A DNA stretch of 8,110 nucleotides, taken from IMG/VR virus record IMGVR_UViG_2740892369_000015. One strand, given 5' to 3'. This DNA is from a virus (Duplodnaviria; Heunggongvirae; Uroviricota; Caudoviricetes). Shown here one piece after another: positions 1 to 7,508 of this stretch (positions are counted from its first letter, which is position 1; each line of letters begins with the position of its first letter). Position numbers and translations under genes: made by a program. The notes beneath the pieces are model-generated. The model was not told the origin of the DNA, ran no database searches, and saw only the letters and a list, made by a program, of their open reading frames with translations.

Positions 1-136
1 AACCGAAAGTCAGTGCTGGCTGTTTTTTTCCTTAATAAGGCATCTGTAACTGAAACAATCCGCATATTGATAATATATTGACAGGCATCATTGCTGTCTG
101 TGAAAAATAAGTCTCTACAAACATATAAGGCCTTTT

Positions 137-177
137 AGCCAGCGTCTTCTTTTTCAGGTCAGTCGCTGGCTTTTTTT
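137..177 (+). terminator. Candidate plus-strand intrinsic terminator (8-bp stem, long loop, T7 run)
   Basis: AGCCAGCG (137-144) pairs with CGCTGGCT (164-171), followed directly by TTTTTTT (171-177). The 19-nt loop is long for a canonical terminator. A similar CTGGCTG+T7 motif at 17-30 looks like the 3' half of a second such hairpin cut by the window edge. Confidence 0.3.
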
Positions 178-178
178 A

Positions 179-2044
179 TTATGCTGCCGGTGCATTTATC
201 TCCAGCATCAGACTTTCTATCTCAACGCCATACGCTGCATTTTTTGTAACATCCGTCAGCGTCAGCGCATTCAGTCCCAGTGTCAGACTGTCTTTTATAA
301 CCTGGAATGCCGGGCCAGCCACTCCATTCAGTTTCGGAGTAACCGTGGCACTGCCGGCGGTGAACACCAGCTCCAGCGTCTGCCAGTCGTTACCGTAATC
401 GCCGAACTCCCCCAGCTTCGTGTTTCCGGCTTTCCTGTGATGCATCAGATTCACTCTGCCGTCAGTGGTCTGAGTGAAGTACGACATCAGGAACGGATTA
501 CCGGTACCCGTCATCGCCACACCATCAGGAACGGGAGCATCCGTATACAGATAAATCCCCAGCCCGAACTGATTGTTGGTCAGCGCGCCTGACAGGCGGA
601 ACTTACAGGTCAGTCTGCCGCCCTGTGTCAGCAGGGTAATTGCGTCATCCACCGGATGCGTCAGGGACCAGGTTTTATTGCTCTGCTTGGCGATCTTAAA
701 TACACCACCCGACAACTGAATTCCGCCGTCCTTAATGGTCCAGCCCTGCGCAGCAGCCTCTCCGGCTGTCGGCAGCAGGGAGATTGTGCGAACGGACGTA
801 TCTGCAGACGGACCCGATGGCGTGTCGCCGCCGGGCGAGGGTTTGATTTCCGGTGCCTTACCACTGATGAAAGCTGAGGTGCGCCCGGCTGCGTTCAGAA
901 TAGCGGTTGCCATACGATCCGGAATAATGCTCCTGCGCGCCCATGAACTGAAATGTGTCGGGCGGTTTGATGATACCTGGTTTCCATTCGTTCTCGATGC
1001 CGCACCGTAATATCCTGATGCCGGAATATCCGGATCTTCTGCCGGTGCGTTAGTGGCGGTATTGACGCCGTTACCGTCTGTCATGAAGGGCACAAAATAA
1101 ACGCCCTCACTCTCCCTGTTTTTATACCCGCCGTACACGGTGTCGTACTGGGTAGCGTATGTATTTTTCCAGTAATACGTCGTGTCACCACAAATCCACG
1201 GCACATTTACAGCACTGCCACCATGACACTGCGCGTTAAACACAGTGAGGTCAGCACGAAACTGCTTCAGCATGGCTGTAAACAGCGCAGGTTGCTGTGC
1301 GTAGGTGGCGGCGCTCATGTCAAACTCTCCCTGCATCCAGCACACCGCCAGCAACACATTTTTCGGGTTCTTCTGTAATGCAGCTTTAGTGCGCGCAATC
1401 AGGTCCTGATATAACGGTTTACCCACACCCCAGCGTGCCGAATCCTGGCTGGCCCCCGTGTCCGCACTGAATGTCCCCTCCGCGCCCTGGGTGAATGCCG
1501 AACCACCACGACAGCATGGTGCCAGCAGGATCCCCGCGTTATTCGGGATATACGGAAGCAGTTTTTTGGCAATATGTAAGCCCTGGCCGACACAGCCGTA
1601 CTGCCCTTTGCTCAGGTCTGCCTTCGGATGATTCAGCGTACTCATATCCTGCACATCATGCAGGCAGTGGTCGGCCGGAATAATATCGTTATATCTGCAG
1701 GCAGCCCCACCCGGCGTCACTGTACTGCGGCGCGCCAGCTGTTTAATGCGCGGATCCGGAGCATCGTATGAATCCGGCAGCGGAAGCCCTTCACCGTAAG
1801 CCATGGCATTGGACTGCCCGGCCAGTACGATGACGTAGTACCAATCCGGCTCAGTTGCACCACTGACCACCACATCACCTTCTGCTGTAATCGCCTGCAT
1901 CAGAGTATAAGGGGTTATGGCCACCGGACTACCAAACGGCTGCCAGCCCTCTTTCAGTTTATGTGTCAGCTTTTCCGCAAGATCTGACGGCGACGCAGCC
2001 CTGACAACATCATAGTGTTTAAATGCCATGGTTCTTTCCACCAT
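179..2044 (-). CDS. nanS: Prophage NanS-p-type sialate (9-O-acetyl-Neu5Ac) O-acetylesterase, SGNH-hydrolase family
   Basis: 621-codon ORF with the SGNH block-I motif GQSN (VLAGQSNAMAYGEG) and the size and position (immediately downstream of the stx-equivalent slot) typical of NanS-p esterases of EHEC prophages. The true start is probably the second Met (ATG 2027-2029, MAFKHYDVV), which is preceded by GGTGGAAAG; the first Met at 2044 has no Shine-Dalgarno. Confidence 0.8.
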   Translation of the reverse strand: MVERTMAFKHYDVVRAASPSDLAEKLTHKLKEGWQPFGSPVAITPYTLMQAITAEGDVVVSGATEPDWYYVIVLAGQSNAMAYGEGLPLPDSYDAPDPRIKQLARRSTVTPGGAACRYNDIIPADHCLHDVQDMSTLNHPKADLSKGQYGCVGQGLHIAKKLLPYIPNNAGILLAPCCRGGSAFTQGAEGTFSADTGASQDSARWGVGKPLYQDLIARTKAALQKNPKNVLLAVCWMQGEFDMSAATYAQQPALFTAMLKQFRADLTVFNAQCHGGSAVNVPWICGDTTYYWKNTYATQYDTVYGGYKNRESEGVYFVPFMTDGNGVNTATNAPAEDPDIPASGYYGAASRTNGNQVSSNRPTHFSSWARRSIIPDRMATAILNAAGRTSAFISGKAPEIKPSPGGDTPSGPSADTSVRTISLLPTAGEAAAQGWTIKDGGIQLSGGVFKIAKQSNKTWSLTHPVDDAITLLTQGGRLTCKFRLSGALTNNQFGLGIYLYTDAPVPDGVAMTGTGNPFLMSYFTQTTDGRVNLMHHRKAGNTKLGEFGDYGNDWQTLELVFTAGSATVTPKLNGVAGPAFQVIKDSLTLGLNALTLTDVTKNAAYGVEIESLMLEINAPAA

Positions 2045-2288
2045 CTGAAAAATAATTCTTTAAAATACCTGACATGTAATACAGAAAAAACACAAAACCA
2101 TACCTTAAATAAAAACCTGATTATCAAGCAGATATGCATGGATAAACTACAAGACGAGATATAAACCACCCTGTATTTAAATAAACAATAAACAACATCA
2201 GAAAAATAATTCTGCTCTATGGTTTAATTCAAAAATATCATTTATACTTTTCAGAACATTACCAGCAAGGCATAAACAAGGAAAGTAA

Positions 2289-2624
2289 ATGAAGTGGATT
2301 GTGATTGATACAGTTATCCAGCCATCATGCGGAATATCTTTTTCAGTCATATGGAGTAAAATAAAATTAATAATCTGGTATCAATCGGATGCTTTCTTAC
2401 CTCCTGAAAGTATATTTACACTGACTCACACAGGCATCATGCTCAATAACAAAGTGCTACCTGTAACCATTTACAACGTAGTACCATTCAATAAAACATT
2501 CTGGAATTTAATCAAAAACAGCCAGGAATGCCCTACAAATACAGATAACGTATTGAATGAATGCTTTAATAACCGTTGCACTCTGCAAATATGTCCTTAT
2601 GGACTAAAACAACAAAGTCCATAA
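2289..2624 (+). CDS. Hypothetical Cys-containing protein (111 aa) in an AT-rich islet, oriented against late transcription
   Basis: ATG preceded by AAGGAAAG at appropriate spacing. A 336-nt open frame is unlikely by chance in such AT-rich DNA. A perfect 12-bp inverted repeat (2594-2605 / 2616-2627, 10-nt loop) spans its stop codon and is followed by GTTTACTC. No homolog recognised by eye. Confidence 0.4.
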
Positions 2625-2642
2625 GGAGTTTACTCACATCTG

Positions 2643-2678
2643 ACAAAATCAATATAAACAGCCCCTCCGGAGAGGGGC
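2643..2678 (-). terminator. Rho-independent terminator for minus-strand transcripts
   Basis: On the minus strand GCCCCTC-TCCG-GAGGGGC (7-bp GC-rich stem, 4-nt loop; plus coordinates 2661-2678) is followed by TGTTTATATTGATTTTGT. The plus strand has no T-tract after the hairpin. Confidence 0.5.
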
Positions 2679-3071
2679 TGGAGAGTGGCGCTATGTGCCA
2701 TTGCATGGTGCCGGGTGCCTCCCGGTGAATTCAGTACCAGCACCTGAATCCGCGATTATCCCATATACCTACTCGCTGATTGCCCCTCCGCACAGGGGGA
2801 TTCACCATGCCAGTTTCTTTTAACAAACTCCCCGCAAACCAGACAACAGTCAACCGCCTGAATTGTGAAGTATTTAAAAATTTCTCCCGCTAACTGATAC
2901 CCGGCTAACAGTCTGGCGTTTTCTTTTTCAGCAACGGGAAAGCAACAACCACCACACCCGCCACCAGTACACAGTCAGCCAGCACTGACATTATCCGGCT
3001 GCTGCAATGCCATTCACAAAAACAGTAAGCAATCACTTTTTACCGTAACAGGTGATAATCCAGATATGTAT

Positions 3072-3398
3072 CTACCCCAGATGAGTAATCCGAAGTTCAT
3101 CCATACCACAGGTCCTGGCTATTCTGTTGTACTCCTGAACAAGAGCAAATAATTCTGAATTAGCAACCATGAACTCATCGCAAACCCTCTGTATAGCATC
3201 ACTATTCAGAAGAATAACGTCTCTTCCCGAAAGACGATCAGGAGTACAGAACAAAACTGTCAAACGGCTGAAGGCCTTTGCTCGTGCTGCATTGACTATA
3301 TCAATACGCTGCCTAAGGATGAAACACCCCGACGCCTCATCAATATTCACTCTACCCACACCATATGAATGATAAATATTTAATACTGAAAAAACCAT
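3072..3398 (-). CDS. Hypothetical protein (108 aa from ATG 3398; the ORF track extends it to a TTG at 3425) in the stx-equivalent cargo position
   Basis: Open frame co-oriented with the late operon, with protein-like composition. There is no strong Shine-Dalgarno. A weak sigma70-like promoter can be drawn upstream on the minus strand (TTGTCA at 3453-3448, 17-nt spacer, AAGTAT at 3430-3425). Not recognisably similar to Stx A or B subunits. Confidence 0.35.
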   Translation of the reverse strand: MVFSVLNIYHSYGVGRVNIDEASGCFILRQRIDIVNAARAKAFSRLTVLFCTPDRLSGRDVILLNSDAIQRVCDEFMVANSELFALVQEYNRIARTCGMDELRITHLG

Positions 3399-3535
3399 TA
3401 GACCGTATAACAAACACTCAATCAATACTTAACAGAACTTTTATTTTTGACAAACATATAATATTTTCAACAATATCCTGAGCCAGGTATATTCCAGTAT
3501 AAGGCTCTGCCGGAAGAAATCTGGAAGAATGAATA

Positions 3536-3612
3536 TGGCGCGTTGTACTGGATTCGAACCAGTGACCGATTGCTTAGAAGGCAATTGCTCTGTCCGGCTG
3601 AGCTAACAACGC
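3536..3612 (-). tRNA. tRNA-Arg (anticodon UCU)
   Basis: Reverse complement is GCGTTGTTAGCTCAGCCGGACAGAGCAATTGCCTTCTAAGCAATCGGTCACTGGTTCGAATCCAGTACAACGCGCCA. It has a 7-bp acceptor stem, D-arm GCTC/GAGC, anticodon stem ATTGC/GCAAT with loop CTTCTAA, T-arm ACTGG-TTCGAAT-CCAGT and an encoded CCA; 77 nt. Confidence 0.85.
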
Positions 3613-3625
3613 ATAATGCAGATAA

Positions 3626-3702
3626 TGGATTGCCATCGGGGACCCGGGCCCCACACAGCCAGTTTCGAAAGCTGACGCTCTCTGCCGATGAGCTAATGGC
3701 GG
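3626..3702 (-). tRNA. Degenerate tRNA-Arg-like gene (anticodon loop TTTCGAA, i.e. UCG), possibly a pseudo-tRNA
   Basis: Reverse complement is CCGCCATTAGCTCATCGGCAGAGAGCGTCAGCTTTCGAAACTGGCTGTGTGGGGCCCGGGTCCCCGATGGCAATCCA, exactly 77 nt in canonical tRNA layout with a good D-arm. The acceptor stem has 2 mismatches, the anticodon stem is weak, and the T-loop CCCGGGT lacks the TTC motif. Confidence 0.5.
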
Positions 3703-3709
3703 TATGTGA

Positions 3710-3785
3710 TGGTGGCCCTTGCTGGATTTGAACCAGCGACCTGGCGATTATGAGTCGCTCGCTCTCACCACTGAGCTAAAGGGCC
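3710..3785 (-). tRNA. tRNA with CAU anticodon (Ile2-lysidine type or Met; ileX/ileZ-like)
   Basis: Reverse complement is GGCCCTTTAGCTCAGTGGTGAGAGCGAGCGACTCATAATCGCCAGGTCGCTGGTTCAAATCCAGCAAGGGCCACCA. Acceptor GGCCCTT/AAGGGCC, anticodon loop CTCATAA, T-loop TTCAAAT, encoded CCA. It closely resembles E. coli ileX as recalled from memory. Confidence 0.85.
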
Positions 3786-3834: not shown

Positions 3835-4884
3835 TCAAACGATTAAATCCTGAACTTCCCTGACTGTCTGTTCAAAACGTCCTGTCTCCAGCTCAACACC
3901 AATCGCACAACGCCCCAGTGCCATCGCCGCTTTTACCGTTGAACCTGAACCCATAAAAAAATCTGCAACCAGGTCTCCCGGACGACTGCTCGCGTTGATT
4001 ATCTGCTGCAGCATTTCTGCCGGTTTTTCGCACGGATGTTTCCCTGGATAGTACTGCACCGGTTTATGCGTCCAGACATCGGTGTACGGAACCTGCGCCG
4101 TCACACCGAAATACCGCCGCAAATTTTTATATTCACTCAGCAGTTCCGTATACTGCCGGTTCAGCCCACTGTATGTGCTGACCAGCTGGTGGTGTGGCTT
4201 TTCCAGTTCCCCGCGCTGATGTTTTTCTGCCGCAACACGCGCAAACAACGCCTGCAATTTGTTGTAATTACCCTCGTTCGGTAACTGCCACTGACTGGTA
4301 CCAAACCAGTGCGAAGCCATGTTTTTCTTTCCGGTGGCTTCCGCTATCTGTTTTGACGTTATTCCCAGTGATTTACGCGCATCACGAAAGTAAGAAATCA
4401 GCGGGGCCATGACGTGCTGTTTTAGCTCGCGCCCCTGTGCCACATAGCCATCATCTTTCGGGCGATACGGTCCCTGATAATGTTCTGCAAACAGAATGCG
4501 CTCTGTTGCCGGAAAATACGCCCGCAGACTTTCCTTATTGCACCCGTTCCAGCGTCCGGACGGCTTCGCCCAGATAATATGGTTCAGCACATTAAAGCGC
4601 TCACGCATCATGATTTCGGTGTCAGATGCCAGGCGATGACCAAAGAACAGGTAAAGACTTCCGGCAGGCTTCAGTACCCGCCAGAACTGCGCCAGACACT
4701 GGTCCAGCCATTTCAGGTAATCATCGTCGCCCTCCCACTGGTTATCCCAGCCCTCGGGCTTCACTTTAAAGTATGGCGGGTCTGTGACTATCAGATCGAC
4801 AGAGTTTTCCGGTAAGGTCTGGATAAATTCCAGGCAATCAGCGTTGATTAACTCACAACTGGATATTTTTACAGTATTAATCAT
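3835..4884 (-). CDS. Beta-class DNA methyltransferase (N6-adenine or N4-cytosine), apparently orphan
   Basis: 349 aa with catalytic motif IV DPPY (LIVTDPPYF) near the N-terminus and AdoMet motif I FxGxG (FFMGSGST) near the C-terminus, the order typical of beta-class amino-MTases. No restriction endonuclease ORF is adjacent. The ATG at 4882-4884 overlaps the stop of an upstream frame as ATGA. Confidence 0.85.
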   Translation of the reverse strand: MINTVKISSCELINADCLEFIQTLPENSVDLIVTDPPYFKVKPEGWDNQWEGDDDYLKWLDQCLAQFWRVLKPAGSLYLFFGHRLASDTEIMMRERFNVLNHIIWAKPSGRWNGCNKESLRAYFPATERILFAEHYQGPYRPKDDGYVAQGRELKQHVMAPLISYFRDARKSLGITSKQIAEATGKKNMASHWFGTSQWQLPNEGNYNKLQALFARVAAEKHQRGELEKPHHQLVSTYSGLNRQYTELLSEYKNLRRYFGVTAQVPYTDVWTHKPVQYYPGKHPCEKPAEMLQQIINASSRPGDLVADFFMGSGSTVKAAMALGRCAIGVELETGRFEQTVREVQDLIV

Positions 4885-5034
4885 AGATCAATAAGCACTT
4901 CTCTGATAGGCTCATACCGCTTTTGCGCAAAGCAGATGGGCCTGAGGTTTGCTTGTGACCCCAACGCATGAGCAGATGGCTGGCAGGTGCCGCTAACACC
5001 CACCAGCCGCCCATTACCACAAATTAAAAAGCCT

Positions 5035-5232
5035 TCACTGCGGAAGGCGTCTGTAACAACCGAACTGATAATCTGCCAGACCCGCCATAACAAGCTGAGT
5101 CAGTATTAACTGGCAGCGTTCGCGTGAAAGGTAAGTATTCTGCGCAATTTCCCCGACGGTCGCCGGTTCGGTGACGCTTAATTCATTAAACACCACTCTG
5201 GCGGTTTCGGTCATATCCTGCTGTTTTAGCAT
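5035..5232 (-). CDS. Hypothetical small protein (65 aa from ATG 5232; the ORF track extends it to 5355), possible winged-helix fold
   Basis: First gene after the tR'-like terminator. Internal ATG at 5230-5232 is preceded by AAGGGAAAAAAGC. The extended start at 5355 would lie inside the terminator, so it is unlikely. Function unknown. Confidence 0.4.
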   Translation of the reverse strand: MLKQQDMTETARVVFNELSVTEPATVGEIAQNTYLSRERCQLILTQLVMAGLADYQFGCYRRLPQ

Positions 5233-5351
5233 GCTTTTTTCCCTTTTCCGGTTAACGTGACATACCAATACCTCTTGTCGAAAAAGCCAGCAAGCTGAAA
5301 GACCAGTATTCACAACTACCAGCGCGTTTAATGTTCTGTGCCGTTTTTCAG

Positions 5352-5380
5352 ACATAAAAAAACCCGCATAAAGCGGGTTC
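5352..5380 (-). terminator. Rho-independent terminator immediately downstream of the Q-like gene (tR'-like)
   Basis: On the minus strand AACCCGC-TTTA-TGCGGGTT (plus 5361-5379) is followed by TTTTTTTATG. Position is analogous to lambda tR', which ends the short pR' transcript unless Q-modified. Confidence 0.6.
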
Positions 5381-5463: not shown

Positions 5464-6018
5464 TCAAGACATTTTTTGAGCAAACGATTCTCGCATAGGG
5501 ATGTATAGCGCATATTCAGCAACAGCCAACCAATTAGCAATTCGCTTTTCGCATGTACTAAAACACCATTCCGGGTGCACCTCATTCAACAATTCAGCCA
5601 TTTTGCGTTTACTCATCCCCCGCCCTTCGTACCTTTGCCGCAGGATATCAATCAATCCAGGATAACGTGCAAGCGCTTTACTTATCACCCCATCAATGCG
5701 TAACGCCTCTGCATCAGTACAGTGAGACAACCAGCTCTTCTGTCTGCCAGCGATCATCTCTCGCAAGAATGCTTCCAGCTCTGGTTTATCAATCCCTGAC
5801 TCCCTGATTCTACGCAGGGCTTCATTGATTGCGGTTTTTGTCAGTTTTTTGGATGCCAGCAACTGATTGAACATATTTCCTGGTTTGCCACCACCTATAT
5901 ACGACCAACGCCCCCACATCCGTAATTTCCCCTGGATCCAGACGGCTTCCAGCGTTTTTAGACGTAAATGCTCGCCGCTTTTGCCTGTAATTTCCGGGTA
6001 TATCATATTTACGATCAC
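5464..6018 (-). CDS. Putative late-gene antiterminator (Q-like), assigned mainly by synteny
   Basis: 180-184 aa ORF directly after rusA and directly before a tR'-like terminator and the tRNA cluster, the canonical slot of Q in lambdoid phages. The GTG start at 6018 overlaps the rusA stop; an ATG 12 nt downstream (6004-6006) is an alternative. No lambda-Q zinc-finger signature is seen, so the family is uncertain. Confidence 0.5.
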   Translation of the reverse strand: MIVNMIYPEITGKSGEHLRLKTLEAVWIQGKLRMWGRWSYIGGGKPGNMFNQLLASKKLTKTAINEALRRIRESGIDKPELEAFLREMIAGRQKSWLSHCTDAEALRIDGVISKALARYPGLIDILRQRYEGRGMSKRKMAELLNEVHPEWCFSTCEKRIANWLAVAEYALYIPMRESFAQKMS

Positions 6019-6380
6019 TCACTCTCAATTTTGTAAATCTTCACGCCCAGCCGTCCCCCAGGAACGCGCTGACCGCGCACAATATTGATTTCATCAAACT
6101 GCTCGTCGTCTATGAGAAGTCCGGCATGCGTCAGCGCATCCAGTGGTGCTTTCAGGATATTGTCCAGGTCACGACGACGTTTATCCGGTGGCTCTGCAAT
6201 AATCTTTATCGCCAGCCTTCCGGACAGGTTTAATTTCAGCCGCTGCTGGCGAACAATAAGCGCCACATCACGGCGATAACGCTCACCGGCTTTTGATACA
6301 AAATATGTGCTGCCACGACGTCGCCAGTAAGTGTTCACCGTTGGCGGGTAAGGCAAAACAAATTCTATGCGTTCAGTCAT
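6015..6380 (-). CDS. rusA: Crossover junction endodeoxyribonuclease RusA (Holliday junction resolvase)
   Basis: 121 aa with the RusA hallmarks RRRDLDN, DALT.AGL..DD.Q and GGRL. Size and nin-region position match prophage rusA. Confidence 0.9.
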   Translation of the reverse strand: MTERIEFVLPYPPTVNTYWRRRGSTYFVSKAGERYRRDVALIVRQQRLKLNLSGRLAIKIIAEPPDKRRRDLDNILKAPLDALTHAGLLIDDEQFDEINIVRGQRVPGGRLGVKIYKIESE

Positions 6381-7508
6381 TCATGCTTTCCACTTCAGGA
6401 CACCCGAATTTCTCGCGTGCATTAAAAAACGAATCAGCAACAACAGCTGGCTGCCGTGTTTTTCTTCAAAATCTTTTACCCCGGCGTGTAGTTCGCTATG
6501 GCATTTACGGCACAGCGGAATAACAAACAAATCATCAGCCTTTGTTCCCATCCCTCCCAGTCCATGACCAATGATGTGATGCGGATCATCTGCCTGATTA
6601 CCACACGTCATGCATTTCTGCGTTTTTACCCAACGCGTGTATACAGGCATCTCTTCCCGTCGTGGTTTCTGGCGCTGGAGATACTGAGCCGGTGACTCCG
6701 GATCAACGGCAATGCTTACCACCGTCTTTTCCTGTGGCGGGTTTTGCTGGTGGGCGTGAGGCAGTAGCGCAATATTTTTTGTGCGCTGCTTCAGCATGCT
6801 GGTGGCGGTCTGCTCTCCCGGCACGATGTCGCTCTCGCGGTATACTGAGCGAATTTTTTCCGCGCGTAATCCCAGTGAACGACGTAACACCGTCTCCGGT
6901 AGTGCGTCCGCTACGTTATTTATGGTTGCCCACCAGGATAATTCAGCCAGCGATAATTCCCGCTCCTGCGTGCCATTCATTGCGTGGCGGATGACATCAA
7001 TCATCCATGCTGACAGGTTTTGGTGAGCAAGCTGCCCGAGTGATTCGGAAGTCTGGTTACGCAGCTGGTTGTCGCAGTGCCAGCACAACACCATCGCGCC
7101 GGTACCGTAACGATGTATGACGGTTTCACTGTGATGGTAGTCACCATGAGGCCACTGGCAGGATTTAATGTGGCGTAACAGCCAGTCAGACAATGCACCA
7201 GCACCACCAGCAGCACGAATCACCCGCTCATCGCTGAAAAATGGCAGTAATGATTTATCCTCCGCCAGCGGCTGGCGAACAGCAGGAACGACTCCGGACG
7301 GCAGACCGCGCATGCTTTTCGGTTCCGGCTCCACCAGAACTCGAGGGTTATGAAATACCTGCATGGATTCACGGCCCGGTTTTAGCACCACCAGCCCAAG
7401 TTCCGGTACCGGAACAGGTCGAAGTAATACCCGCACGTTACCTCCAGATGCGTTGCTGGAATGTGCGGGACGGACGCGGTGGGCGTTCGGAATAAGGGAG
7501 CCTGACAT
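6381..7508 (-). CDS. DUF968 family protein (YdfU-like) with C-terminal HNH/zinc-binding-like motif
   Basis: C-terminal HHIIGHGLGG...PLCRKCHSELH signature of DUF968 prophage proteins, and typical position upstream of rusA. The annotated start overlaps the upstream ORF by 71 nt; the real start may be an internal Met (for example ATG 7362-7364). Confidence 0.8.
   Translation of the reverse strand: MSGSLIPNAHRVRPAHSSNASGGNVRVLLRPVPVPELGLVVLKPGRESMQVFHNPRVLVEPEPKSMRGLPSGVVPAVRQPLAEDKSLLPFFSDERVIRAAGGAGALSDWLLRHIKSCQWPHGDYHHSETVIHRYGTGAMVLCWHCDNQLRNQTSESLGQLAHQNLSAWMIDVIRHAMNGTQERELSLAELSWWATINNVADALPETVLRRSLGLRAEKIRSVYRESDIVPGEQTATSMLKQRTKNIALLPHAHQQNPPQEKTVVSIAVDPESPAQYLQRQKPRREEMPVYTRWVKTQKCMTCGNQADDPHHIIGHGLGGMGTKADDLFVIPLCRKCHSELHAGVKDFEEKHGSQLLLLIRFLMHARNSGVLKWKA

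Follow-up and report, generated by a model that had tools for sequence, protein, structure and literature searches.

The stretch of DNA analysed here, 8,110 nucleotides (nt) of IMG/VR virus record IMGVR_UViG_2740892369_000015 and referred to below as the window, carries on its minus strand an open reading frame (ORF) that lies directly downstream of a tRNA cluster and ends with a TAG stop codon at position 3072. Our computational analysis indicates that the core of this ORF (3072–3350) is, as judged from comparison with its relatives, a genuine coding gene under purifying selection as a protein, and that it lies in the slot which holds stxAB in Stx2 phages. Taken as a whole, the reading in which a real gene is carried as cargo in the stx slot and is expressed mainly in a Q-dependent manner is the one that we favour, and we consider it somewhat better than an even chance. 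The window, which matches the chromosome of strain 97-3250 at 100% identity, comes from an Escherichia coli lambdoid prophage and represents its late region; the locus is present in 1,186 of 5,426 complete E. coli genomes (22%), at approximately 1,350 places. The sequence is already public, as a hypothetical protein and in the PHROG collection, and the gene is an uncharacterised cargo of the familiar kind found in the Q-to-lysis slot.

The length of the ORF is unremarkable alone, with several antisense ORFs of about 110 amino acids (aa) elsewhere in the window, and the ORF is judged to be above chance because of its pattern of conservation. Three in-frame starts are available, TTG at 3425 (117 aa), ATG at 3398 (108 aa) and GTG at 3350 (92 aa). 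Two E. coli sister subfamilies are colinear with the ORF over exactly 92 codons, without insertions or deletions, at 68–70% nucleotide identity. Differences at the first, second and third codon positions number 23/22/44 in the comparison with L008 (subfamily 2) and 19/21/43 in that with L222 (subfamily 3), and the dN/dS ratio against L008, which is 68% identical, is 0.26 by the Nei-Gojobori method, with values of about 1 in the out-of-phase frames.

In order to avoid selecting for intact proteins, copies of the locus in IMG/VR were picked only by a DNA pattern of 36 nt in the upstream spacer, which gave 110 usable copies, 45 of them distinct. The core frame was intact in 108 of the 110 copies, and 105 were gap-free with the frame intact; among the remaining five, two diverge only past the stop codon and a third carries a 1-nt deletion that precedes GTG 3350, while in a fourth a deletion into the DUF3927 gene has removed the final five or six codons, and the fifth is without the region altogether. 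Variable sites were sparser in the core (4.7%) than in the upstream spacer (17%), and the pN/pS ratio of the changes segregating within the family was about 0.5. Frameshifts and stop codons tolerated in homologous prophages, which the original prediction had named as the pattern that would speak against the ORF, were looked for in this way, and the core frame was found to be conserved. In two copies divergence begins right after the TAG, an indication that the gene ends at a recombination (module) boundary.

More distant relatives were found by profile searches. Homologues of 91–110 aa with 21–43% identity, all of them labelled hypothetical, are present in Citrobacter, Salmonella, Morganella, Serratia and Xenorhabdus, and those as distant as 21% identity in these five other genera retain the length and the motifs of the protein; a plasmid-borne E. 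coli subfamily was also found. The close family occurs only in E. coli, in a scan of one genome per species. The 117-aa form matches the phrog_2873 profile with an E value of 1.8e-69 (231.7 bits), residues 10–117 aligning with positions 1–108 of 108; the 92-aa core alone matches it with an E value of 9e-58 over residues 1–92, and phrog_4827 gives a weaker match. Of nine diverse homologues that were searched, all hit phrog_2873 and eight also hit phrog_4827.

The ORF has a GC content of 0.44, compared with 0.51–0.55 for the methylase, RusA, DUF968 and esterase genes and 0.33 for the upstream spacer. Its density of AGA, AGG and AUA codons, 8.6 per 100 codons, is the highest in the window; five of its 10 Arg codons and three of its eight Ile codons are of these types, which are read by the tRNAs immediately upstream. 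Annotation of the ORF is uneven. Of 30 sampled complete genomes with the locus at 98–100% identity, 29 have no coding sequence over the ORF in RefSeq (PGAP pipeline), which lists only tRNA-Arg there, while GenBank and UniRef hold a 108-aa form as a hypothetical protein. Two other readings of the same DNA were rejected. An antisense ORF on the plus strand (3169–3372) is interrupted by a stop codon in the L008 subfamily, where its start Met is Val, and is open in L222; its low apparent dN/dS arises because its wobble positions are shared with the sense frame. A terminator-like hairpin inside the ORF (3218–3236) was treated as chance, being within coding sequence and having only three G-C pairs.

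Translation probably starts at GTG 3350, giving a product of 92 aa (3072–3350, minus strand, 92 codons and the TAG). The original prediction had described a 108-aa product; the ORF is real, but that length is probably wrong, and the in-frame upstream extension (3351–3425), which contains both ATG 3398 and TTG 3425, is probably a 5' leader. The N-termini of the homologues in both E. coli sister subfamilies and in the Citrobacter/Salmonella group align at GTG 3350 or within three residues of it. Subfamily 3 (L222) has the same GTG with a canonical AGGAG ahead of it and no start codon upstream, and PGAP annotates 92 aa there, while subfamily 2 (L008) is out of frame upstream of the GTG in most copies. 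The 1-nt deletion of the one close-family IMG/VR copy mentioned above falls just after ATG 3398 and before the GTG, and leaves the core intact. All three changes that segregate between the ATG and the GTG are non-synonymous, and the differences between subfamilies 1 (that of the window) and 3 over the 48 nt before the GTG (7/4/5 by codon position) show no third-position bias. Upstream identity between these two subfamilies is 67% over positions -48 to 0, where the matching positions cluster in the final 33 nt or so, and falls to 33% further upstream. A weak Shine-Dalgarno-like sequence, GGTGTGGGT (3354–3362, minus strand), lies ahead of GTG 3350 and aligns with the AGGAG of subfamily 3, the aligned site in L222 reading GGCAGGAGTAGAGTG. 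The computed pairing energy with the anti-Shine-Dalgarno sequence is -5.4 kcal/mol for GTG 3350, -3.9 kcal/mol for ATG 3398 and -0.9 kcal/mol for TTG 3425. The start of the ORF is probably mis-set in annotations other than RefSeq, and the 108-position length of the PHROG profile probably reflects the choices of gene callers.

Other 5' regions of the family were also compared. The idea that the 117-aa form is a membrane-anchored protein with a hydrophobic N-terminus was rejected, since the extension is conserved in no relative. The Morganella/Serratia/Xenorhabdus subgroup has 11 additional N-terminal codons, MS(I/V)QY(V/I)LKGYS, with differences of 10/9/24 by codon position (L098 5968–6000, L100 5968–6000, L227 4968–5000 and L226 5001–5033), which suggests that they are probably translated, though most gene calls use an internal ATG; no convincing alignment could be made between this stretch and the upstream extension of the window, and homology of the two was rejected. 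In L003–L007, of E. coli subfamily 2, an IS3-family element right upstream of the core replaces the native 5' region and the 92-codon core is intact, an arrangement present in contigs from many samples.

The position of the gene was examined by comparison with Stx2 phages. Homology to these phages (933W, PA36 and others) spans the end of the methylase gene and the three tRNAs, ends at position 3521, 15 nt past tRNA-Arg, and resumes at position 2884, within the STnc100-type element found after stxB in these phages. Because the homology breaks from 3521 to 2884, the ORF together with a truncated DUF3927 gene replaces stxAB; the segment between the shared flanks consists of stxAB in Stx2 phages, of tciAB in phage JLK-2012 and of the ORF in the window. 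The proposal that the ORF lies at the exact position of stxA is accordingly sound at the level of the slot; stx2A of PA36 starts 91 nt after argO, whereas the candidate starts in the window lie 111, 138 and 186 nt after the tRNA. The ORF does directly follow the tRNA cluster on the late strand, as had been proposed, being the first ORF after tRNA-Arg (3536–3612) and co-oriented with it. The late strand of the window is the minus strand, which carries the Q-like, methylase and NanS-p esterase genes as well as the tRNAs and the ORF; the genes for the holin and lysozyme are also on it in the source genome.

In 10 of 12 distinct contexts (the window, mEp460_ev081, L003, L008, L222, L093, L098, L100, L225 and L227) the gene is located on the late strand between a Q antiterminator and holin/lysis genes. 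In E. coli subfamily 3 (L222, L223) and in Citrobacter (L093, L094) the gene is followed by an intact pair encoding a TerB-like protein, TciA, and a DUF3927 protein, TciB. The window contains no TciA gene, and only the C-terminal half of TciB aligns with the intact 50-aa protein; homology to tciB of phage JLK-2012 begins at position 3004, and PGAP annotates only 28 aa of the truncated ORF (2905–3036, minus strand; Pfam DUF3927, E = 8e-26), which starts 36 nt downstream of the gene. From these alignments the 2905–3036 segment appears to be the remnant of the TciA and TciB pair that follows the gene in relatives.

Expression by read-through from the late promoter, as for stx, had been suggested in the original prediction and is judged here the most economical route. 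This view is inferred from architecture, on which Q-dependent late expression is the most likely. A Q-like protein (DUF1133/Phage_antitermQ) is encoded at 5464–6018, and an intrinsic terminator at 5031–5048, which overlaps the end of a gene for a 106-aa protein of phrog_331 (5035–5355), separates it from the stretch containing the methylase gene, the tRNAs and the ORF, all on the minus strand; since this terminator sits between the Q-like gene and the ORF, the late transcript must read through it. A simple scan detected no consensus late promoter between the Q-like gene and this terminator, and in the window no terminator separates the ORF from the tRNAs. Coding-strand intrinsic terminators are present on both sides of the gene in the Citrobacter (L093), Morganella (L098) and Serratia (L100) loci. 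Those after the gene are located at 6328–6347, 6306–6323 and 6372–6393, respectively, with another at 6303–6320 in L222, and the hairpins in L222, L093 and L098 have GCTAC(G/T)GCG in common. This terminator-bracketed arrangement fits a gene that would be shielded from transcription in the lysogen and reached only by polymerase that has been antiterminated, which is largely the case for stx2. In the window, a transcript through the ORF would continue over the TciB stump and end at the strong intrinsic terminator at 2659–2680 (minus strand), the first downstream of the ORF on the late strand, unless it was antiterminated; the small RNA (sRNA) element with that terminator may be the 3' end of the same transcript.

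A sigma70-type promoter belonging to the ORF itself had also been proposed at 3425–3453 (minus strand), with TTGTCA (3453–3448), a 17-nt spacer and AAGTAT (3430–3425). Both hexamers are present, as is the ORF, where they were reported, but the proposal is not supported. The site matches the consensus at eight of 12 positions (three of six in the -10 element), which is below the threshold of the scan, and the region contains four promoter-like sites compared with 2.1 ± 1.4 in shuffled sequences, which is not above chance. Within the close family the site is polymorphic at 3426 (A/G, in the -10 element) and at 3431, and it is not conserved between subfamilies, with a 17-nt insertion in one sister subfamily and no recognisable counterpart in the other (L008, L222). 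In L008, L222, L093, L098 and L100, the spacer immediately ahead of the gene contains no consensus promoter on the coding strand. A -10-like TATCAT (3369–3374, minus strand) is conserved in all three E. coli subfamilies, as TATAAT in L008, with no recognisable -35 element; with low confidence, it may be an alternative promoter or part of the translation-initiation region.

The original prediction had seen no toxin, enzyme or signal-peptide motif in the product, and searches of Pfam, NCBIfam, the Protein Data Bank (PDB) and predicted folds bear this out. Neither Pfam nor NCBIfam gave a match at E ≤ 0.1, a sequence-profile search of the PDB matched no entry below E = 0.4, and Pfam searches with ten diverse homologues returned sub-threshold noise only. 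No defence family of PADLOC-DB 2.0 matched at E ≤ 0.1, a result that is still compatible with an undescribed system. Toxin and antitoxin families of Pfam gave no match, and the downstream neighbour varies (DUF3927 stump, TerB-like gene, holin gene or pRha-like gene). The comparison with Shiga toxin and other ribosome-inactivating proteins (RIPs) revealed no RIP domain, B-subunit fold or signal peptide, and the homologues have no conserved hydrophobic N-terminus. Binders of the RNA polymerase secondary channel (GreA/GreB, DksA/TraR) were considered as well, and the product was found not to combine a coiled-coil hairpin bearing a conserved acidic tip with a GreA_GreB_N or zf-dskA_traR match. A role as a DNA mimic or nucleic-acid-binding protein was rejected because net charge is not conserved in the family (pI 4.8–9.9), whose members appear to be soluble proteins with GRAVY values near 0. 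No feature points to a toxin or enzyme, or to a secreted or membrane protein.

AlphaFold2 predicted the same topology with seven aligned sequences (pLDDT 84) and with 18 (pLDDT 88.5), namely a helix over residues 3–34, a loop with a short beta-bridge, a helix over residues 50–81 and a short tail, and structure searches with the model returned generic antiparallel helical hairpins only. The best-conserved segment is the loop with its flanks, LTVLFCTPDR, and R23, N64 and N75 are invariant in 18 diverse members. The product is thus predicted to be a soluble antiparallel two-helix coiled-coil hairpin of about 92 residues with a conserved T-P-D-R loop.

Our working model is that lambdoid prophages carry the gene in the variable slot that separates the Q antiterminator/tRNA cluster from the lysis cassette, and that it would be transcribed mainly within the Q-dependent late transcript reading through intrinsic terminators, so that the product, like that of stx2, would be made after induction. 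Translation from GTG 3350 would yield the hairpin protein, for which size, predicted fold and the conserved loop and face weakly suggest stoichiometric binding to another protein as opposed to catalysis. TciA and TciB, of which only the TciB stump survives in the window, would be its ancestral neighbours and possible partners. Our best estimate of its function, held with much less confidence than the reading as a whole, is a small protein-binding modulator made late after induction, perhaps one that once worked with TciA and TciB.

Several observations weigh against this model. In E. coli, the plasmid subfamily of the gene lies next to a PapB-type fimbrial operon, and in Xenorhabdus the gene is found in a Mu-like tail cluster, with an IS element alongside. 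Residence in a Q-dependent operon is thus not obligatory, and transcription in these two settings must start from some other promoter. In subfamilies 2 and 3 a YdeO/GadX-like AraC regulator gene precedes the gene with no intervening terminator, an arrangement that could give expression in the lysogen by co-transcription. The conserved -10-like TATCAT is located 18–24 nt before the GTG, and the upstream spacer is AT-rich (33% GC). The copy in the window is without the gene-proximal terminator of its relatives, the first terminator lying past the sRNA. Among 50,697 deposited phage genomes the gene occurs in a single one, mEp460_ev081 (LR597641.1; L001 5299–5839), and for this reason a role in lytic growth is not indicated; the record of this genome leaves out the ORF and annotates a short antisense one instead. 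With respect to translation, the Shine-Dalgarno sequence of the GTG start is only weak in the subfamily of the window, and the upstream frame is open in 105 of the 110 IMG/VR copies. Finally, the predicted fold matches only generic hairpins, which lends the binder mechanism no specific support.

Some of these observations are accommodated by an alternative that we regard as unlikely, yet as the strongest of those considered, namely that the gene is an autonomous moron with a sigma70 promoter of its own in the AT-rich spacer, expressed in the lysogen and acting in lysogenic conversion or phage exclusion, perhaps with TciA and TciB. Morons, in the sense of Hendrix and colleagues, are promoter-gene-terminator cargo units of lambdoid phages. 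The GC content lower than that of the neighbouring genes, the presence or absence of the gene between conserved flanks, the gene-proximal terminator in relatives, the conserved TATCAT and the promoter needed by the plasmid and tail-cluster copies are all in its favour, as are the recurrence of the order ORF, TciA, TciB in E. coli and Citrobacter and the abundance of the gene in prophages resident in complete E. coli genomes, set against its near absence from isolated phages. However, the proposed promoter is poor, polymorphic and not conserved, the five related phage loci have no coding-strand consensus promoter upstream of the gene, and PADLOC gave no match. Moreover, the ORF is intact in the window although TciA is gone and TciB is truncated, and phage JLK-2012 has tciA-tciB without the ORF.

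A more ambitious version of late expression is improbable in our view. It would place the family in a so far unrecognised class of late lambdoid effector, a terminator-insulated, Q-dependent, tRNA-assisted small coiled-coil protein that, after induction, binds and reprograms some machine of the host or the phage, with RNA polymerase, a protease adaptor and the holin as candidate targets; alternatively, the product would be the missing third component in control of a TciA/TciB exclusion module. Still less probable is that the product is an accessory of lysis timing, in which case a small helical protein of the cytoplasm would bind the holin or some other lysis protein, with RIII of phage T4 as a precedent. 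The gene is always on the late strand and the predicted protein is soluble and helical; no other called gene separates it from the downstream holin/lysis genes in Morganella (L098, L099) and in a metagenomic phage (L227), and in Serratia (L100) the lysozyme gene is separated from it by two small ORFs without an assignment. In E. coli, on the other hand, 1–3 kb of other cargo (the sRNA, the IraM-like gene and the esterase gene) intervenes between the gene and the holin gene, an intrinsic terminator separates the two in L098 and L222, lysis genes are missing from the surroundings of the plasmid and tail-cluster copies, and the holin families of the carriers vary (Phage_holin_2_1, _3_1 and _8), which argues against a specific partner. 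That the ORF is decaying or spurious, its frame open only by descent from recent near-identical copies and the region a non-coding leader of the downstream sRNA, agrees with its absence from RefSeq/PGAP annotation in most sampled genomes, the weak Shine-Dalgarno sequence, the within-family pN/pS and the visibly degraded adjacent cassette, but is very improbable and already largely refuted by the between-subfamily dN/dS, third-position bias and lack of indels and by the conserved length and motifs of the remote homologues. The confident structure prediction and an Rfam scan that found no RNA family over the ORF also speak against it.

The remaining features of the window were annotated as follows. 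Upstream of the Q-like gene, on the minus strand, lie genes for a DUF968 protein (6381–7508) and RusA (6015–6380), and downstream of the terminator at 5031–5048 lies that for an N6/N4 DNA methylase (3835–4884). The tRNA cluster on the same strand begins with a tRNA with a CAT anticodon (3710–3785; tRNA-Met/Ile2, called tRNA-Ile by PGAP, and the equivalent of ileZ) and ends with the tRNA-Arg at 3536–3612 (anticodon TCT), the equivalent of argO. Between them, a degenerate argN-like tRNA pseudogene (3629–3702, minus strand) scores 22 bits with the Rfam tRNA model, compared with a gathering score of 29, and is not called by ARAGORN. It is the middle member of the ileZ-argN-argO trio of Stx phages; its T-loop, TTCGAGT in argN of phage PA36, reads CCCGGGT here, and its acceptor arm is also mutated.

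Downstream of the DUF3927 remnant, an STnc100/PasD-type sRNA element (2650–2839, minus strand; Rfam RF02076, 132 bits compared with a gathering score of 47) has the terminator at 2659–2680 at its end. According to a 2026 preprint, the STnc100 family is related to the prophage sRNA PasD (bioRxiv 10.64898/2026.05.13.724894). A literature search with STnc100 gave papers on this neighbouring sRNA and none on the ORF, and one with tciA/tciB returned only unrelated Trypanosoma papers. An IraM-like gene follows on the opposite, plus strand (2289–2624; anti-adaptor IraM subfamily model NF007393, 162 bits compared with a cut-off of 121; phrog_4407; 35% GC), and after it a gene for a NanS-p-type esterase (179–2044, minus strand). 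A prophage-encoded RssB anti-adaptor of this type, lying between the stx slot and the esterase gene, could affect RpoS stability in the lysogen.

The Q-to-lysis slot is a site of consequential lambdoid cargo, including Shiga toxin, and this gene fills it in about one in five complete E. coli genomes. The corrected 92-aa model of a real, selected gene with relatives in the Enterobacterales provides a defined target, and helps in the annotation of Stx-like prophages without stx. With no sign of a toxin or a defence system, its practical significance is modest until a phenotype is found.

In comparison with known systems, the product is a member of phrog_2873 by full-length profile match, with a weaker link to phrog_4827, both families being listed as of unknown function, so that membership gives no clue to mechanism, and the 108-position model of phrog_2873 takes in an upstream extension that the comparison presented here suggests is untranslated. 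The ORF is homologous to neither TciA nor TciB, the pair known from JLK-2012 and its relatives. It lies immediately upstream of the pair in E. coli subfamily 3 and Citrobacter and of its stump in the window; the pair occurs without the ORF in JLK-2012 and the ORF without the pair in Morganella and Serratia phages. Because each occurs without the other, the link between them is facultative. With morons the gene shares its presence or absence between conserved flanks, its lower, atypical GC content and, in relatives, a gene-proximal terminator. It differs from them in that no convincing promoter of its own was found and that such a terminator is missing in the window, and the terminators upstream of it in several relatives fit insulation within a Q-dependent transcript and not autonomous expression. 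The product, a single predicted cytoplasmic hairpin without a signal peptide, has no relation in sequence or fold to the A subunit or the B pentamer of Shiga toxin, but the gene has in common with stxAB of 933W and PA36 the same cargo slot and orientation, an upstream junction 14–15 nt after the argO-type tRNA-Arg, a downstream STnc100-type element, a similar richness in AGA, AGG and AUA codons (8.6 per 100 codons in the ORF and 7.2 in stx2A) and, likely, the logic of Q-dependent read-through.

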